DNA from: a virus
Reading direction: 5' to 3' (one strand)
Length of the DNA: 13,986 nucleotides
Virus genome (UHGV): UHGV-0373582
The position numbers and the translations under genes are program-made. Below are positions 114 to 10,137 of the stretch, one piece after another. Within the stretch, counting starts at the first letter, position 1. Each line of letters starts with the position of its first letter. Below the pieces are notes generated by a model, which saw only the letters and a list, made by a program, of their open reading frames with translations, was not told the origin of the DNA and ran no database searches.

Positions 114-329
114 ATGAAACGTAAAATTGTTCAGAACTGCACTAATGACGAATTTGAAGATGTGTTATTCGATCCAGATTTGGTAGTAGTTCAAAAGGAA
201 CACACTGCTAAGTTTACTCACTTGACTTCGGTTTATGTGTATGAAAAGGTTGGGGATAAACAACCAATTTACGGTGTATTTCGTGAAATCACTGAAGATG
301 GTACAACTTACTGGAAGGAAATTTATTAA
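114..329 (+). CDS. hypothetical small early protein (71 aa)
   Basis: ATG preceded by GAGG RBS (cgaggaaattgtaATG); stop overlaps next start (TAATG at 327-331). No recognisable motif. Confidence 0.5.
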
Positions 330-742
330 TGGCTATTAAATTTGAAGTTAATAAATGGTATCAATTTAAAAATAAACAAGCTCAAGAAAATTTTATTAAA
401 GACCATACTGATAACGGAATCTATGCACGCCGTTTAGGTATGCATCCTTTTAAAATTTTAGATGTGGATGCTCTTGGGCGTCCTATTAAAATTATGTCAT
501 TTGCTGGAAATTTAGTACTATCTTCTGGTAAAGATATTTTGGATGAAGATTTTATTTGGCTTTCATCGAATGAAGCTGAATTCTTTAATGAAGTTGAAAA
601 TCCATACCAGGCAGCTGAAGAGCAGGAAGAATCTGCACCGATAACTGATCAATCTAAATTCCCTGTAATGAAAGTTACTATTGAAAATGATGAACAGGCA
701 TGGTCCTTGTATCAGATGTTGAAAGCTCACTTTAAGGAATAA
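329..742 (+). CDS. hypothetical protein (137 aa), acidic C-terminal half
   Basis: Start overlaps upstream stop (TAATG), suggesting translational coupling; uninterrupted ORF. By position it could correspond to one of the T4 genes upstream of gene 39, but I do not recognise the sequence. Confidence 0.5.
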
Positions 743-744
743 TT

Positions 745-921
745 ATGCCGCTTTATGATTATAAATGTCAATCAAAAGACTGCGCAAAAGAATACGAAAA
801 AATCAAGAAAATTTCTGAAAGAGATACTGATGTATGTCCTGATTGTCATCGGATTGCTATTCGGTTAGTTTCCGCTCCTAAGCATGTGAATGGTGGATTT
901 TACGACTTACTTAAAGGGTGA
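745..921 (+). CDS. small zinc-ribbon protein (58 aa), FmdB-like CxxxxC...CxxC
   Basis: AAGGA RBS 6 nt upstream of ATG 745; translation MPLYDYKCQSKDCAKEY...CPDCHRIA has two Cys pairs with the spacing typical of FmdB-family zinc ribbons. Below the 60-aa cutoff of the ORF track. Confidence 0.5.
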   Translation: MPLYDYKCQSKDCAKEYEKIKKISERDTDVCPDCHRIAIRLVSAPKHVNGGFYDLLKG

Positions 922-923
922 TT

Positions 924-1295
924 ATGTTTAAAATCGGTAAGAAATATCGTATTCGCGAAGGTGAAGAAAAGAAATATCTATTTTCTGCTATTTATAGGAA
1001 TGGTTCTATTAATGCTGTAATATCTACAAGCGAATTTATCATTGAAGATATGAAAGGTCATAATGTTACGATGATTAGTACAGCATCTGGAAATGACGGA
1101 AAAATTCTTCACAGTATGCAGAGTAATGTTCTAATTTATGATGAAGAATTTGACTTCTTCGAAGAAGTTCCCGAAGATTTTGATTTTGAATGCACTATCA
1201 CTATGAAATCTGGTGACCCTCTTTCATTTACGGTTAAAGATGAAAGAAGTCGCTTGAGAATTATTAGTCTCCTTCAAGCCATTAAATTTAAGTGA
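924..1295 (+). CDS. hypothetical protein (123 aa)
   Basis: ATG at 924 lies 3 nt after the upstream TGA (919-921); the ORF track's 918 start is a GTG in the same frame. No recognisable motif. Confidence 0.5.
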   Translation: MFKIGKKYRIREGEEKKYLFSAIYRNGSINAVISTSEFIIEDMKGHNVTMISTASGNDGKILHSMQSNVLIYDEEFDFFEEVPEDFDFECTITMKSGDPLSFTVKDERSRLRIISLLQAIKFK

Positions 1296-1300
1296 AAACT

Positions 1301-1561
1301 ATGAAATATATTAATCGTTCTATCGCAGCATTAGTATTAGCAGTGTCTTTAGCAGGATGTACTGATGCTGATAATGCAACCAAAGTTTTGTCTTCAAGTG
1401 GTTTTACTAATATTGAAATCACTGGATACAACTGGTTCGGTTGCTCTGAAAATGATTTTCAACATACTGGATTTCGTGCTATTGGACCTACCGGGCAGAA
1501 AGTAGAAGGAACTGTATGTTCTGGTCTATTCTTCAAGGATTCGACTATCCGTTTTAAATAA
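1301..1561 (+). CDS. putative lipoprotein (86 aa) with signal peptide and LAGC lipobox
   Basis: N-terminus MKYINRSIAALVLAVSLAGC has a basic n-region, hydrophobic core and a lipobox cysteine. The start could instead be GTG 1292. A UUCG hairpin follows the stop. Confidence 0.5.
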   Translation: MKYINRSIAALVLAVSLAGCTDADNATKVLSSSGFTNIEITGYNWFGCSENDFQHTGFRAIGPTGQKVEGTVCSGLFFKDSTIRFK

Positions 1562-1578
1562 AAGGCCTTCGGGCCTTT
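1561..1578 (+). other. UUCG-tetraloop hairpin after the lipoprotein ORF (AAAGGCC-ttcg-GGCCTTT)
   Basis: Perfect 7-bp stem with TTCG loop at the lipoprotein-ORF stop; no T-run follows and it abuts the candidate middle promoter. Confidence 0.5.
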
Positions 1579-1603
1579 AGCTTTATGATTACCGGAGTAT
1601 AAT
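1579..1603 (+). promoter_or_regulatory. candidate MotA-dependent middle promoter for gene 39
   Basis: AGCTTTA (one mismatch to the MotA-box core TGCTTtA) at 1579-1585, 12-nt spacer, then perfect TATAAT at 1598-1603, about 28 nt upstream of the gene 39 ATG. Confidence 0.4.
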
Positions 1604-1630: not shown

Positions 1631-3448
1631 ATGATTAAGAATGAAATTAAAATTCTGAGCGATATTGAACATATCAAAAAGCGTAGCGGCATGTACATTG
1701 GCTCTTCCGCTAATGAAATGCATGAGCGCTTTCTGTTTGGTAAATGGGAAAGTGTTCAGTATGTACCTGGTCTTGTTAAGCTTATTGATGAAATTATCGA
1801 TAACTCGGTAGATGAAGGTATTCGTACTAAGTTTAAATTCGCGAATAAAATTAATGTTACTATCAAAAACAATCAAGTAACAGTTGAAGATAATGGTCGT
1901 GGTATTCCACAAGCGATGGTTAAAACACCTACTGGTGAAGAAATTCCTGGTCCTGTTGCCGCTTGGACTATTCCAAAAGCAGGTGGTAACTTTGGTGATG
2001 ACAAAGAACGCGTCACTGGTGGTATGAACGGTGTTGGTTCTAGTTTAACTAACATTTTTTCTGTGATGTTTGTCGGTGAAACTGGCGACGGTCAAAATAA
2101 TATTGTAGTTCGTTGTTCAAATGGCATGGAAAATAAATCATGGGAAGATATTCCTGGAAAATGGAAAGGAACACGTGTTACTTTCATTCCTGATTTTATG
2201 TCATTTGAAACTAATGAGCTATCTCAGGTTTATCTTGACATTACACTGGATCGTCTCCAGACACTTGCAGTAGTTTATCCTGATATTCAATTTACCTTTA
2301 ATGGTAAAAAGGTTCAGGGCAATTTTAAGAAATACGCACGCCAATATGATGAGCACGCTATCGTTCAAGAACAAGAAAATTGTTCTATTGCGGTTGGTCG
2401 TTCACCGGATGGTTTTCGTCAATTAACATACGTCAATAACATTCATACTAAGAATGGTGGCCATCACATTGACTGCGTTATGGATGATATTTGTGAAGAC
2501 CTTATTCCACAAATCAAACGTAAGTTCAAAATTGATGTAACTAAAGCACGTGTTAAAGAATGTTTGACTATCGTTATGTTTGTTCGTGATATGAAAAACA
2601 TGCGATTTGATTCTCAGACTAAAGAGCGTTTGACTTCTCCATTTGGTGAAATTCGTAGTCATATTCAGCTTGATGCTAAAAAGATTTCACGTGCTATTTT
2701 AAATAATGAAGCAATTTTAATGCCAATTATTGAAGCTGCCTTGGCTCGTAAATTGGCAGCAGAAAAAGCAGCAGAAACTAAAGCAGCTAAAAAGGCTTCT
2801 AAAGCTAAGGTTCATAAACATATTAAAGCGAATCTTTGTGGTAAAGATGCTGACACTACTCTTTTCTTGACTGAGGGTGATTCGGCTATCGGATATCTTA
2901 TTGATGTTCGTGATAAAGAACTTCATGGTGGTTATCCATTGCGCGGTAAAGTTCTCAACAGTTGGGGCATGTCATATGCTGATATGCTTAAAAACAAAGA
3001 ACTGTTTGATATTTGCGCAATCACTGGATTAGTTCTTGGTGAAAAAGCCGAAAACTTGAATTATCATAATATTGCAATTATGACCGATGCCGACCATGAT
3101 GGTCTAGGAAGCATTTATCCTTCTCTGCTCGGATTTTTTAGTAATTGGCCAGAACTGTTTGAACAAGGAAGAATTCGTTTTGTCAAAACTCCTGTAATCA
3201 TCGCTCAGGTCGGTAAAAAACAAGAATGGTTTTATACAGTCGCTGAATATGAGAGTGCCAAAGATGCTCTACCTAAACATAGCATCCGTTATATTAAGGG
3301 ACTTGGCTCTTTAGAAAAATCTGAATATCGTGAGATGATTCAAAACCCAGTATATGATGTTGTTAAACTTCCTGAGAACTGGAAAGAGCTTTTTGAAATG
3401 CTCATGGGAGATAATGCTGACCTTCGTAAAGAATGGATGAGCCAATAG
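1631..3448 (+). CDS. 39: DNA topoisomerase II large subunit, GyrB-like, fused gp39+gp60 form (605 aa)
   Basis: GAGGA RBS 6 nt upstream of ATG 1631. Translation carries GHKL ATPase motifs (EDNGRGIP, GGMNGVGSS) and TOPRIM motifs (LTEGDSA, MTDADHDG). One continuous ORF spans both the ATPase and the TOPRIM/C-terminal part that T4 encodes separately as gene 60. Confidence 0.9.
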   Translation: MIKNEIKILSDIEHIKKRSGMYIGSSANEMHERFLFGKWESVQYVPGLVKLIDEIIDNSVDEGIRTKFKFANKINVTIKNNQVTVEDNGRGIPQAMVKTPTGEEIPGPVAAWTIPKAGGNFGDDKERVTGGMNGVGSSLTNIFSVMFVGETGDGQNNIVVRCSNGMENKSWEDIPGKWKGTRVTFIPDFMSFETNELSQVYLDITLDRLQTLAVVYPDIQFTFNGKKVQGNFKKYARQYDEHAIVQEQENCSIAVGRSPDGFRQLTYVNNIHTKNGGHHIDCVMDDICEDLIPQIKRKFKIDVTKARVKECLTIVMFVRDMKNMRFDSQTKERLTSPFGEIRSHIQLDAKKISRAILNNEAILMPIIEAALARKLAAEKAAETKAAKKASKAKVHKHIKANLCGKDADTTLFLTEGDSAIGYLIDVRDKELHGGYPLRGKVLNSWGMSYADMLKNKELFDICAITGLVLGEKAENLNYHNIAIMTDADHDGLGSIYPSLLGFFSNWPELFEQGRIRFVKTPVIIAQVGKKQEWFYTVAEYESAKDALPKHSIRYIKGLGSLEKSEYREMIQNPVYDVVKLPENWKELFEMLMGDNADLRKEWMSQ

Positions 3449-3716: not shown

Positions 3717-5894
3717 ATGATTATCACCACTGAAAAAGAAACAATTCTTGGTAATGGTTCTAAATCAAAAGCATTTAGCATCACAGCATCTCCTAAAGTA
3801 TTTAAAATTCTGTCATCTGATTTGTATACAAACAAGATTCGCGCAGTAGTCCGTGAATTGATTACCAACATGATTGATGCCCATGCTCTCAATGGAAATC
3901 CTGAAAAATTTATCATTCAAGTTCCAGGACGATTAGATCCGCGATTTGTTTGCCGAGATTTTGGTCCGGGTATGAGCGATTTTGATATTCAAGGTGATGA
4001 TAATTCTCCTGGGTTGTATAATTCATACTTTAGTTCATCTAAGGCTGAATCTAACGATTTCATTGGTGGATTTGGTTTAGGTTCTAAATCTCCGTTTAGT
4101 TATACTGATACATTTAGTATTACTTCATATCATAAAGGCGAAATTCGTGGTTATGTAGCTTACATGGATGGCGATGGTCCACAAATTAAACCTACATTTG
4201 TAAAAGAAATGGGTCCAGATGATAAAACTGGTATTGAAATCGTAGTTCCAGTTGAAGAAAAAGACTTTAGAAACTTTGCTTATGAAGTTTCTTATATCAT
4301 GCGACCATTCAAAGATTTAGCTATCATTAATGGTCTTGACCGCGAAATTGATTATTTTCCGGATTTTGATGACTATTACGGCGTAAATCCAGAAAGATAC
4401 TGGCCAGATCGTGGTGGATTGTATGCTATCTATGGTGGTATTGTTTATCCTATCGATGGTGTTATTAGAGACCGTAACTGGTTAAGCATCCGCAATGAAG
4501 TGAATTACATTAAGTTTCCAATGGGTTCACTTGATATTGCTCCATCACGCGAAGCTCTTTCACTAGATGATCGTACCCGTAAAAATATTATTGAGCGTGT
4601 TAAAGAGCTTAGTGAGAAGGCATTCAATGAAGATGTAAAACGATTTAAAGAATCTACATCTCCTCGTCATACATACCGTGAATTGATGAAGATGGGATAT
4701 TCTGCTCGAGATTATATGATTAGTAATTCAGTCAAATTTACGACTAAAAATCTGTCATATAAGAAGATGCAAAGCATGTTTGAACCTGACAGTAAGTTAT
4801 GCAATGCAGGAGTTGTGTATGAAGTAAATCTTGACCCTCGACTGAAACGCATTAAGCAAAGTCATGAAACTTCAGCCGTTGCATCAAGTTATCGTCTGTT
4901 TGGTATTGATACAACAAAAATTAATATTGTTATTGATAATATTAAAAATCGTGTTAATATTGTCCGTGGATTAGCGCATGCGTTAGATGATAAAGAATTT
5001 AACAACACTTTGAATATTCATCATAATGAGCGTCTTCTGTTTATTAATCCGGAAGTAGAATCGCAGATTGATTTACTTCCTGATATTATGGCAATGTTTG
5101 AAAGTGATGAAGTTAACATTCATTATTTGTCAGAAATTGAAGCTTTAGTTAAAAGCTATATTCCAAAGGTAGTTAAAAGTAAAGCTCCTCGTCCTAAAGC
5201 TGCTACAGCATTTAAGTTTGAAATTAAAGACGGGCGCTGGGAAAAAGAGGAATTATTTACGCTCACATCAGAAGCAGATGAAATTACTGGGTATGTAGCG
5301 TATATGCATCGTTCTGATATTTTCTCTATGGATGGTACTACATCGCTTTGTCATCCATCTACGAGTATTTTGACTCGTATGGCTAATCTTATTGGCATTA
5401 ATGAATTTTATGTTATTCGTCCGCTTTTGCAGAAAAAGGTAAAAGAACTTGGTCAGTGCCAATGTATTTTTGAAACTCTGCGTGATTTATATGTAGATGC
5501 TTTTGATGCTGTAGATTATGATAAGTATGTAGGTTATTCAAGTTCAGCTAAACGATATATTGATAAAATTATCAAGTATCCTGAGTTAGATTTTATGATG
5601 AAGTACTTCAGTGTAGATGAAGTTTCTGAAGAATATACTCGCCTTGGTAATATGGTTAGTTCATTGCAGGGTATATATTTCAACGGTGGAAAAGGTACCA
5701 TCGGCCATGACATCTGGACAGTAACTAATCTTTTTGATGTATTGTCAAATAATGCTTCAAAAAATAGTGATAAAATGGTTGCTGAGTTTACCAAGAAATT
5801 CCGTATTGTTTCCGACTTCATCGGTTATCGCAACTCTTTAAGTGATGATGAAGTTTCCCAAATCGCTAAAACTATGAAGGCCCTTGCGGCCTAA
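3717..5894 (+). CDS. rIIA: rIIA protein (725 aa), GHKL-type ATPase-like N-terminal domain
   Basis: GAGGA RBS (taatgaggaaattATG). Length matches T4 rIIA. N-terminus has GHKL-like boxes ([27 protein letters not shown]). Immediately followed by rIIB. Confidence 0.88.
5498..5522 (+). promoter_or_regulatory. candidate MotA-box middle promoter inside the 3' end of rIIA (could serve rIIB)
   Basis: TGCTTTT at 5498-5504, 12-nt spacer, TATGAT at 5517-5522, about 385 nt upstream of the rIIB ATG. Could be a chance match within coding sequence. Confidence 0.25.
5878..5892 (+). other. short GC hairpin at the rIIA stop (AGGCC-cttgc-GGCCT)
   Basis: Inverted repeat AGGCC / GGCCT with a 5-nt loop, overlapping the last rIIA codons and followed by the AAGGA RBS of rIIB. 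Confidence 0.35.
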
Positions 5895-5905
5895 TAAGGA
5901 AAATT

Positions 5906-6844
5906 ATGTACAATATTAAATGCCTGACCAAAAACGAACAAGCTGAAATTGTCAAACTGTATTCAAGTGGTAATTACACCCAACAGGAATTGGCTGATTG
6001 GCAAGGTGTATCGGTTGACACAATCCGTCGTGTTTTGAAAAATGCTGAAGAAGCTAAACGTCCTAAAGTTACTATTAGCGGTGACATTACGGTTAAAGTT
6101 AATAGCGATATAGCTATTGCTCCAGTTGCTAAATCTGACATTATTTGGAATGCATCTAAAAAATTCATTTCAATTACTGTTGACGGTGTAACTTATAACG
6201 CAACTCCTAATACTCATTCAAACTTCCAGGAAATTCTTAATCTGCTTGTTACAGATAAATTGGAAGAAGCGGCGCAAAAAATTAACGTTCGTCGCGCTGT
6301 TGAAAAATATATTTCCGGTGATGTTCGAATTGAAGGTGGAAGCTTGTTCTATCAAAATATTGAATTGCGGTCTGGTTTAGTTGATCGTATTCTCGATTCG
6401 ATGGAAAAAGGCGAAAACTTTGAATTTTATTTTCCGTTCTTGGAAAATCTGTTGGAAAACCCAAGCCAAAAAGCGGTATCTCGACTCTTTGATTTCTTGG
6501 TAGCAAACGATATTGAAATCACAGAAGATGGTTACTTCTATGCTTGGAAAGTAGTTCGCAGTAATTACTTTGATTGTCATTCAAATACTTTTGATAACAG
6601 TCCTGGTAAAGTAGTTAAAATGCCACGTACTCGTGTGAATGACGATGATACACAAACTTGTTCTCGTGGTCTGCATGTGTGTTCTAAATCTTATATTCGT
6701 CACTTTGGCAGTTCAACCAGCCGAGTTGTAAAAGTTAAAGTACATCCTCGCGATGTAGTATCAATTCCGATTGATTACAATGATGCTAAAATGCGTACCT
6801 GCCAATACGAAGTAGTTGAAGACGTTACTGAACAATTTAAATAA
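5906..6844 (+). CDS. rIIB: rIIB protein (312 aa)
   Basis: AAGGA RBS; length matches T4 rIIB; directly downstream of rIIA in the canonical rII arrangement; N-terminal HTH-like stretch QELADWQGVSVDTIRRVL. Confidence 0.85.
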   Translation: MYNIKCLTKNEQAEIVKLYSSGNYTQQELADWQGVSVDTIRRVLKNAEEAKRPKVTISGDITVKVNSDIAIAPVAKSDIIWNASKKFISITVDGVTYNATPNTHSNFQEILNLLVTDKLEEAAQKINVRRAVEKYISGDVRIEGGSLFYQNIELRSGLVDRILDSMEKGENFEFYFPFLENLLENPSQKAVSRLFDFLVANDIEITEDGYFYAWKVVRSNYFDCHSNTFDNSPGKVVKMPRTRVNDDDTQTCSRGLHVCSKSYIRHFGSSTSRVVKVKVHPRDVVSIPIDYNDAKMRTCQYEVVEDVTEQFK

Positions 6845-6858
6845 GGGCTTCGGCCCTT
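6843..6858 (+). other. UUCG-tetraloop hairpin at the rIIB stop (AAGGGC-ttcg-GCCCTT)
   Basis: Perfect 6-bp stem with TTCG loop overlapping the rIIB TAA; no T-run follows, so more likely an RNA stability or processing element than a terminator. Confidence 0.5.
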
Positions 6859-6872
6859 AACTAAGGAAAATT

Positions 6873-7067
6873 ATGCTAGGTTATCAAGCACGAGTAAAAG
6901 AAGAATACGATCAATTAATGCTCAAAATTAATGCACTGAGCAAATTTTTAGAAAGCACAAAGTTTCTAACGATTAATGAAGTTGAGCAAGAATTACTGCT
7001 TTCACAGTTCATCTCAATGAAATCTTACGCAGATTGTTTAGAAAAAAGAATTGCACAATTCAAATAA
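6873..7067 (+). CDS. hypothetical protein (64 aa), predicted helical
   Basis: AAGGA RBS 6 nt upstream; bracketed by the rIIB-end hairpin and a terminator-like hairpin. Confidence 0.45.
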   Translation: MLGYQARVKEEYDQLMLKINALSKFLESTKFLTINEVEQELLLSQFISMKSYADCLEKRIAQFK

Positions 7068-7070
7068 AAT

Positions 7071-7094
7071 AAGGGGCTTCGGCCCTTTTGTTTT
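7071..7094 (+). terminator. candidate intrinsic terminator (GGGGC-ttcg-GCCC stem followed by TTTTGTTTT)
   Basis: GC-rich stem with UUCG loop (7073-7086) followed directly by a T-rich tract, 4 nt after the stop of the 64-aa ORF. Confidence 0.55.
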
Positions 7095-8216: not shown

Positions 8217-8480
8217 ATGAAATTTAAATTTTATTACGCTAAACATAAAATAACTGATGAGTTTGTGTCAGTTGAATATTCTAGCGATGATGAAGGTATG
8301 ATTTATACTCGCTTGGGATTATCGCATTGGGAGTCTGATACGCCTTATTTTTCAACTCCCGAAGAAATTACACGCTTAGTTAACGGTCATATGAATGACC
8401 ACTGGTGTGTAATTCTTTCAGATAGTCTTAAAGCGGCTATTAATAGTAATGAAATGAAAATCGCTGAGATTGAACTATGA
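8217..8480 (+). CDS. hypothetical protein (87 aa)
   Basis: First ATG after the upstream stop; the track's 8208 start is a TTG. Weak RBS. Confidence 0.4.
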   Translation: MKFKFYYAKHKITDEFVSVEYSSDDEGMIYTRLGLSHWESDTPYFSTPEEITRLVNGHMNDHWCVILSDSLKAAINSNEMKIAEIEL

Positions 8481-9891: not shown

Positions 9892-9971
9892 TGAGTAATT
9901 TCCACAACGAACACGTGATGCAGTTCTATCGTAATAATCTTAAAACTAAAGGCGTCTTCGGACGCCAGTGA
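9891..9971 (+). CDS. stp: Stp peptide (26 aa), the T4 peptide known to activate the host PrrC anticodon nuclease
   Basis: Translation [26 protein letters not shown] matches the 26-residue T4 Stp as I recall it. Start overlaps the ndd stop (TAATG). Below the ORF-track size cutoff. Confidence 0.7.
9951..9966 (+). other. UUCG-tetraloop hairpin inside the 3' end of stp (GGCGTC-ttcg-GACGCC)
   Basis: Perfect 6-bp GC-rich stem with TTCG loop covering the last stp codons (KGVFGRQ), just upstream of the next RBS. Confidence 0.5.
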
Positions 9972-9978
9972 GGAAAAT

Positions 9979-10137
9979 ATGAATATCGCAAAATTATTAG
10001 GAGTTATTTCATTTATTTGTTGGATAGTAGCATGTGTTTTAACTATCTGTATTGATGCCAGCAGTGTGTTTTCGCAAGCTTTAGCTCAGGGTATGTGTGC
10101 ATATTTAACATTTGTGTTGTTATCTACTAATGATTAA
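9979..10137 (+). CDS. small membrane protein (52 aa); positional candidate for ac
   Basis: GAGGAAAAT-ATG RBS; translation MNIAKLLGVISFICWIVACVLTICIDASSVFSQALAQGMCAYLTFVLLSTND is hydrophobic. T4 ac lies between stp and 52, but I do not recognise the sequence. Confidence 0.4.
   Translation: MNIAKLLGVISFICWIVACVLTICIDASSVFSQALAQGMCAYLTFVLLSTND

Follow-up and report, generated by a model that had tools for sequence, protein, structure and literature searches.

Gene 39.1 of T4-type phages encodes a predicted envelope lipoprotein that belongs to a large phage protein family

Lipoproteins encoded by phages are known from superinfection exclusion systems such as Llp of phage T5 and the Cor proteins of the phi80/T1/N15 type. 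The T-even phages carry the exclusion proteins Imm and Sp (spackle), which are early, non-essential and located in the envelope, and which act after adsorption without being receptor-specific. Imm resides in the inner membrane, while Sp is soluble in the periplasm and carries an ordinary signal peptide. Neither of the two belongs to the lipoproteins. For superinfection exclusion by both, PMC12373910 cites Lu and Henning 1994. Here, we analyzed a lipoprotein candidate in a stretch of 13,986 nucleotides from the virus genome UHGV-0373582 (the whole stretch is referred to as the window), where an earlier reading made from the letters alone (the original prediction) had proposed a lipoprotein gene at positions 1301 to 1578. 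Judged by its sequence, the open reading frame (ORF) is gene 39.1 of T4-type phages (T4p007, UniProt Q01435) and is already catalogued as such. Our analysis points to a strongly conserved, membrane-tethered protein family, for which an exclusion role is weighed below against several alternatives.

The window is a segment of a Tequatrovirus (T4-like) genome, and its bases 900-2000 matched 418 phage records with at least 80% of this region covered, in most cases at 95-99% identity. The 39.1 frame runs from an ATG (1301-1303) over 86 codons to a TAA stop (1559-1561) and encodes a protein reading MKYINRSIAALVLAVSLAGC, followed by TDADNATKVL... (Table 1). A mechanical ORF list opens the frame at a GTG (1292); annotated orthologues, such as 39.1 of RB14, start at the ATG. 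All 86 residues match positions 5-100 of the 118 positions of the PHROG 902 profile (phrog_902, E 4.7e-37), which is annotated as ‘unknown function’. A Pfam scan showed no family covering gp39.1, whereas the neighbouring small T4 proteins have T4_Cef and T4_RIIA1. The window protein is 100% identical to its counterparts in phages PBM-1, ADUt and PhiZZ23 and 98.8% identical to that of resequenced T4. The only difference from gp39.1 elsewhere lies at the lipobox -2 residue (A here, V or I elsewhere), a position that varies between A, V and I among Tequatroviruses.

The proposal of a convincing lipoprotein signal was supported by a rule-based lipobox test. For this test, we used a PROSITE PS51257-type rule, which asks for a Lys or Arg among the first seven residues, an uncharged hydrophobic stretch, a lipobox of the type [LVI..][ASTVI..][GAS]-C, and the Cys at position 15-35. 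gp39.1 shows K2 and R6, an uncharged stretch A10-V15 and then S-L-A-G-C20, and its h-region (SIAALVLAVSL) has a mean Kyte-Doolittle hydropathy of 2.55. Across 266 candidate starts in six frames, the rule matched 39.1 and just two others, namely a small membrane ORF (9979-10137) and a spurious ORF on the minus strand. Sub-threshold matches were obtained to Pfam LPAM_1 (E 0.096, 13.6 bits against a cutoff of 20) and to the NCBIfam LptM signal (E 0.019, 15 bits against a cutoff of 27.7). The ORF at 9979-10137 encodes 52 aa (MNIAKLLGVISFICWIVAC...) belonging to phrog_2501 (unknown function); it matches the lipobox regular expression and resembles a small transmembrane protein. By its position upstream of gene 52, we presume that it could be the T4 ac gene.

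The signal, of the signal peptidase II type, is also conserved in evolution. Residue counts over 198 family members showed that 179 retain the lipobox Cys and 157 the core lipobox pattern; the -1 residue is G, A or S in 173/179 of the Cys-bearing members. The +2 residue is Thr in the window protein and, family-wide, Thr in 152 members, Ser in 18 and never Asp, while the +3 residue is mostly Asp or Asn. According to the E. coli +2 rule, lipoproteins without Asp at +2 are sorted to the outer membrane, so the prevalence of Thr and Ser predicts outer-membrane sorting. In about 10% of the members, an N-terminal transmembrane helix or a prepilin-like leader replaces the lipobox. As each of these N-termini would provide an anchor, the family domain is predicted to be always extracytoplasmic and membrane-tethered. 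Individual variants are diverse: P0153 carries a prepilin-like leader (AG-FTLVEMLIVL); P0091, P0117, P0124, P0153, P0106 and the BFVD entry W6ASX3 have other anchors or architectures; P0106 shows a tandem domain duplication; and Enterobacter phage PG7 encodes a 156-aa form. Homologues from JS98, KMI12, KP185, Moby and PG7 are labelled ‘lipoprotein’ by UniRef or GenBank, and the lipoprotein prediction is therefore not new. Overall, gp39.1 is very probably a genuine lipoprotein.

Next, we considered selection on the gene. Among 14 distinct orthologous DNA sequences, the ratio of nonsynonymous to synonymous substitution rates (dN/dS) was 0.03-0.23, indicating purifying selection, and variable sites were distributed as 36/18/67 over codon positions 1, 2 and 3. 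The frame named in the original prediction thus holds in related phages, with low dN/dS and a third-position bias, and by these sequence measures 39.1 is a real, strongly conserved gene. A spurious ORF or a minus-strand gene at this place (1288-1431, 1459-1698) was rejected based on the codon-position pattern and dN/dS.

Searches with tblastn located gp39.1 in 1,066 phage records, mostly large myoviruses. These include the genera Tequatrovirus, Mosigvirus and Dhakavirus, other T4-like phages of Klebsiella, Enterobacter, Cronobacter, Serratia and Aeromonas, and further Stenotrophomonas phage Moby, Sinorhizobium phage phiM7 and jumbo phages of Klebsiella and Pseudomonas. An exhaustive profile search yielded 2,238 clusters at 50% identity with E<=1e-3 (1,122 at 1e-10), with members in phages of Gamma- and Alphaproteobacteria, Bacteroidota and Planctomycetota. 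An alignment-based scan of bacterial genomes returned no true relatives. A hand-built degenerate DNA motif for TGY-x4-C-x3-D-x3-TGF-x-A, which catches half of the known members, gave 23 sites in 185,579 species genomes, 22 of them encoding confirmed family members; since about half of the family would escape this motif, the count is indicative of rarity in bacterial genomes but does not show it.

The confirmed bacterial loci come from Achromobacter, Pandoraea, Dyella, Sphingobium, Roseococcus, Flagellimonas and Tenacibaculum, as well as from Planctomycetota, Aliarcobacter, Bdellovibrionales and a few metagenome-assembled genomes (MAGs) labelled as Gram-positive or Patescibacteria. At the seven bacterial loci where neighbours were checked, these were mostly phage-type genes. 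The prophage-like surroundings comprised a DNA polymerase with a RecE-like exonuclease, a CI-like repressor with an O-like replication initiator, ParB and a methyltransferase. We read these results as a phage family whose members also sit in the early or accessory parts of temperate phage genomes. In Achromobacter veterisilvae (locus L029, 4124-6551), the member follows a CI-like repressor at a distance of about 1 kb on the same strand, opposite to an O-like replication gene; this is a common place for exclusion genes in temperate phages. Lipobox-bearing members were also seen on MAG contigs assigned to Acutalibacteraceae, Bacilli, Patescibacteria and Saccharibacteria (L024, L046, L033, L045), which may be mis-binned phage contigs or a genuine extension to monoderm hosts.

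The AlphaFold2 model of the protein (mean predicted local distance difference test score 77.5; 86-93 over residues 21-40 and 51-70) consists of a helix (residues 23-32) that packs on four strands (36-43, 54-61, 67-74, 81-85). The helix starts at residue 23, leaving almost no tether after Cys20; with just two residues between the helix and the predicted lipidated Cys, the modelled domain should sit directly on the membrane surface. Two further cysteines, Cys48 and Cys73, are both present in 182 of the 198 members and both absent in nine, and a single one occurs in seven, four of which are truncated fragments. The two residues are thus kept or lost together, which suggests a disulfide in the periplasm.

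A Foldseek search of the model against all PDB chains gave no solved structure at E<2, and the family profile had 0 matches among PDB sequences. Structure comparison scored 6.1 for VirB8, 6.0 for the PepSY protein YpmB, 4.2-5.9 for cystatins and 4.6 for the colicin M immunity protein. All of these are small helix-on-sheet modules, and several are inhibitors or immunity proteins; we treat the resemblances as a lead and not as functional evidence. They bear on one alternative to exclusion, in which a lipid-tethered cystatin- or PepSY-like domain would act as a periplasmic inhibitor that blocks a protease, muramidase or lytic transglycosylase and thereby stabilizes the infected envelope. We consider this unlikely.

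The original prediction had likened the candidate to Llp and Cor-type factors. In such a mechanism, the lipoprotein would attach to the phage’s own outer-membrane receptor from the periplasmic side and so block re-adsorption and the loss of progeny on debris. Phages T2, T4 and T6 use different receptors, namely FadL/OmpF, OmpC and Tsx, respectively. However, T2, T4 and the window share one and the same mature gp39.1, and T6 differs from it by a single substitution, so the sequence does not track the receptor. The protein is also 97.7% identical in Yersinia phage fPS-90, which comes from a phage set reported in PMC7917993 to use lipopolysaccharide (LPS) and OmpF. There is no linkage to receptor genes either, as the neighbourhood of 39.1 (39.2, ORF005c, gene 39) contains no adjacent receptor-binding, adhesin or tail-fibre gene. 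The match to Cor (phrog_1119, E 0.027) covers residues 8-29 only, which correspond to the signal peptide; no Llp family was found by PHROG profile search at E<=1, and the PDB offered no structural match. What does speak for receptor masking is the overall build of gp39.1 as a small, early lipoprotein that is predicted to be directed to the outer membrane, with a probable disulfide and hardly any tether, which matches the description of T5 Llp in PMC9586334. Weighing these points, the receptor-masking analogy is not supported for gp39.1, and we regard this mechanism as improbable.

A small lipoprotein predicted for the outer membrane could also be an outer-membrane spanin subunit or a lysis accessory, and a faint PHROG match to an Rz-like spanin (E 0.46) was indeed seen. 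This match, however, is confined to residues 5-28, again the signal peptide, and no i-spanin gene is adjacent to or embedded in 39.1, whose neighbours encode a cytoplasmic protein and a topoisomerase. The 39.1 RNA is early, the predicted fold is globular and not proline-rich and extended, and T4 encodes its own spanin pair elsewhere. A spanin function is therefore very improbable.

The T4 reference sequence presents 39.1 in a disrupted form. In NC_000866/AF158101, the frame reads MKYISRSIAALVLAVSLINSTDAD and then stops, with the lipobox LIGC changed to LINS and a +1 T frameshift, and gp39.1 is annotated as 65 aa from an internal ATG without a signal peptide. The comparison (NC_000866 5398-5839 against MT984581, KJ477685 and window 745-1561) showed further substitutions and indels across a reference stretch of about 300 bp, in which 39.2 is shortened from 58 to 45 aa. 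Only four records have the disrupted gene, all with the identical old stretch (X06220, M89919, AF158101, NC_000866), whereas every resequenced T4 (T4T, KJ477684-6, MT984581, OL964735, OZ209023, OZ209057, OZ035787) has an intact 86-aa 39.1 with the lipobox L-I-G-C, located at 5387-5647 in MT984581. Judging from these sequences, the reference variant is probably an old sequencing error. The idea that laboratory T4 is a natural 39.1 knock-out was rejected, because the disruption is restricted to the four old-sequence records and all resequenced T4 are intact.

Data on expression and fitness are available for T4. In an integrated transcriptome and proteome time course, 39.1 is assigned to the class ‘early-RNA_late-Protein’ (PMC9697503, supplementary files 4 and 6), which implies that gp39.1 was detected by mass spectrometry. 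The supplements of a CRISPRi-ART screen list 39.1 as ‘Not Fit’ and as a PHROG ‘singleton’, with guides at T4 reference positions 5565-5605 (about window 1360-1400) that include reference-only bases (PMC11879866). As these guides are placed around the erroneous internal start, ‘Not Fit’ is weak evidence and the ‘singleton’ label is unreliable. The apparent reference errors that truncate 39.1 and 39.2 have thus been carried into at least one genome-wide knock-down screen with wrong-start guides. A search of the literature on gp39.1, T4 lipoproteins and phage-encoded lipoproteins found no functional study.

The best explanation for these observations is that 39.1 is a non-essential early accessory gene of T-even phages. 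As an alternative to exclusion, its benefit might lie in another envelope role, such as countering an envelope-based host defence or a stress sensor, or modulating lysis timing or lysis inhibition. This would fit the location among non-essential early host-takeover genes beside rIIA/rIIB, the wide distribution in lytic and temperate phages, and the ‘Not Fit’ entry in PMC11879866, which is typical of condition-specific accessory genes in a laboratory host. However, a PADLOC scan gave no match to a defence or anti-defence family, and the called genes of four distant loci, which do not amount to a systematic test, contained no conserved partner. We assign such accessory roles a low probability; together with the enzyme inhibitor described above, they are nevertheless serious rivals to exclusion.

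Our preferred reading, which we hold only tentatively, is that gp39.1 is an envelope factor that works at the membrane surface on a conserved target, for example in post-adsorption exclusion. After export, Cys20 would be modified with diacylglycerol, the signal peptide cleaved and the Cys N-acylated, and the Lol system would sort the lipidated protein to the outer membrane. There, the 67-residue domain, a compact helix with four strands that is probably locked by the Cys48-Cys73 disulfide, would work flat against the membrane surface, two residues from its lipid anchor. It would bind or block an envelope component that is conserved across hosts and T-even phages rather than a phage-specific receptor, as suggested by the identity of the mature protein in T2, T4 and the window and by members in phages of many bacterial phyla. 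The most likely benefit would be to shield the infected envelope from later phages after adsorption, at the stage of tail penetration or DNA entry, making gp39.1 a companion to T4 Imm and Sp. Elsewhere, family genes also stand in early or accessory positions, in prophage-like loci beside a CI-like repressor, replication initiators, DNA polymerase or RecE-like genes. Superinfection exclusion in this broader, post-adsorption sense is possible.

Several points weigh against exclusion. The very low dN/dS and the near-identity across T-even phages are uncommon among factors engaged in an arms race between phages, and members with a transmembrane helix would sit at the inner membrane, which weakens the case for a single target at the outer membrane. 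Moreover, the exclusion phenotypes of T4 are classically accounted for by imm and sp, and lipidation, localization and disulfide are predictions from sequence. In its most far-reaching form, the proposal would make gp39.1 a third, overlooked envelope-level exclusion or protection factor of T-even phages beside Imm and Sp, founding a very large family of membrane-tethered periplasmic proteins and acting at the inner face of the outer membrane on a target that is conserved among Gram-negative hosts. We consider this rather doubtful. If true, T4 genetics would have overlooked the factor in part because its signal peptide is hidden in the reference sequence.

Table 1. Features of the 39.1 locus and of UUCG hairpins in the window
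Feature	Position	Strand	Basis or remark
cef	114-329	+	
goF	329-742	+	
39.2	745-921	+	
RB32ORF005c-like gene, 123 aa, without signal peptide	924-1295	+	phrog_622, GoF-like N-terminus
Gene 39.1 coding sequence, 86 aa plus stop, predicted prolipoprotein	1301-1561	+	Translation; orthologues RB14/T2/T6/T4 gp39.1
Predicted signal peptide, residues 1-19 (n-region K2/R6, h-region S7-L17)	1301-1357	+	Sequence, hydropathy, PS51257-type rule
Predicted lipobox L17-A18-G19-C20	1349-1360	+	Cys20 (1358-1360) predicted lipidated first mature residue
Predicted mature domain, 67 aa, 7.3 kDa	1358-1558	+	One helix and four strands, AlphaFold2 model
Cys48, putative disulfide partner of Cys73	1442-1444	+	Co-retention in family
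Cys73, putative disulfide partner of Cys48	1517-1519	+	Co-retention in family
C(UUCG)G hairpin, 7-bp stem	1561-1578	+	Overlaps last base of stop codon
Middle (MotA-dependent) promoter of gene 39	1580-1603	+	GCTT 1580-1583, 14-nt spacer, TATAAT 1598-1603
Fused topoisomerase II large subunit gene 60plus39, downstream neighbour	1631-3448	+	
UUCG hairpin after rIIB	6842-6859	+	
UUCG hairpin after ORF 6873-7067	7071-7088	+	
Weak UUCG hairpin	8353-8370	-	
UUCG hairpin just upstream of ORF 9979-10137	9951-9966	+	

Gene order in the window was read against the annotations of RB14, T2 and T6. Gene 39.1 is the last of five abutting or overlapping genes on the same strand (cef-goF-39.2-ORF005c-39.1), and 60plus39 is followed by rIIA.1, rIIA and rIIB. 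The TGA of the ORF005c-like gene lies 5 nt ahead of the 39.1 ATG and the Shine-Dalgarno match of 39.1 is weak, which makes translational coupling to the preceding gene plausible. The location just upstream of the topoisomerase gene was correctly predicted, with about 70 nt between 39.1 and gene 39 in the window, RB14, T2, T4, T6 and Mosigvirus-like loci. The distance grows to 0.3-2 kb in three other loci (L021, L016, L020), and the two genes are unlinked in distant phages. As distant lytic phages have other neighbours and no topoisomerase nearby, the synteny with gene 39 is lineage-specific and does not reflect functional coupling. Describing a lipoprotein at this place as unexpected among early replication genes was overstated: cef-goF-39.2-39.1 is a known non-essential early cluster, a mosaic of small accessory genes, and it adjoins the membrane-associated rIIA/rIIB.

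The RB32ORF005c-like gene resembles GoF/MotB-region proteins in its N-terminal part; it is missing from T4, has a shorter form in T2, and also occurs in T6 and RB14. A functional link between ORF005c and 39.1 was rejected on the grounds that the ORF005c product is GoF-like and lacks a signal peptide and that T4 does not have the gene. The topoisomerase large subunit of the window is encoded by a single 605-aa gene, without the T4-specific mobA/60.1 insertion and the translational bypass of gene 60.

A UUCG hairpin at the 3′ end of the ORF, as described originally, is present (AAAGGCC-UUCG-GGCCUUU, -10.7 to -11.5 kcal/mol). Its fold energy is unremarkable (z -1.07; 32/200 shuffles fold equally well). 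Relatives keep the hairpin at the same site, including a compensatory change from GGCC/GGCC to GGGC/GCCC in Mosigvirus-like loci (L017-L019), and the MotA box (GCTT) and the -10 element are always located downstream of it. Several phage records annotate a terminator followed by the gene 39 middle promoter, with SA21RB giving a rho-independent terminator. A terminator scan made no call at the hairpin, where the bases after the stem are AGCUUUAUGAUU; relatives have UUUU or UUUUU. An intrinsic terminator would be expected to show a free U-tract of at least 5 of 8 bases at this place. Compared with T4 intrinsic terminators, the U-run of the window lies mostly inside the 3′ arm of the stem, whereas the Mosigvirus-like versions have a clearer UUUU tail. 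The hairpin is likely an early-transcript terminator or a 3′ stabilizer; it would end or stabilize the early transcript ahead of the middle promoter and take no part in the function of the protein. Four UUCG hairpins with stems of at least 6 bp occur on the plus strand of the window (starting at 1561, 6842, 7071 and 9951), compared with a mean of 0.84 expected in shuffled sequence for both strands together. With its GC stem and UUCG loop directly after the stop codon on the transcribed strand, the hairpin at 39.1 resembles the C(UUCG)G intercistronic hairpins of T4 and is generic T4 punctuation that is not specific to the lipoprotein.

The gene and the prediction of a lipoprotein are not new, and the finding itself is ordinary. 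It shows, however, that a well-studied virus carries a strongly conserved, expressed and predicted envelope lipoprotein, whose family is very large across phages of many phyla. This makes gp39.1 a well-defined target for studying how lytic phages remodel or guard the host envelope.

Among the described systems, T5 Llp has no detectable sequence or fold relationship to gp39.1. Unlike Llp, 39.1 is not adjacent to a receptor-binding protein gene and does not vary with receptor usage. The likeness to Cor (PHROG 1119) amounts to a short phage lipoprotein with a weak profile match, and the mature domains are unrelated. T4 Imm and Sp share with the proposed role of gp39.1 that they are early, non-essential and located in the envelope, and they differ from it in that gp39.1 is a predicted lipoprotein.

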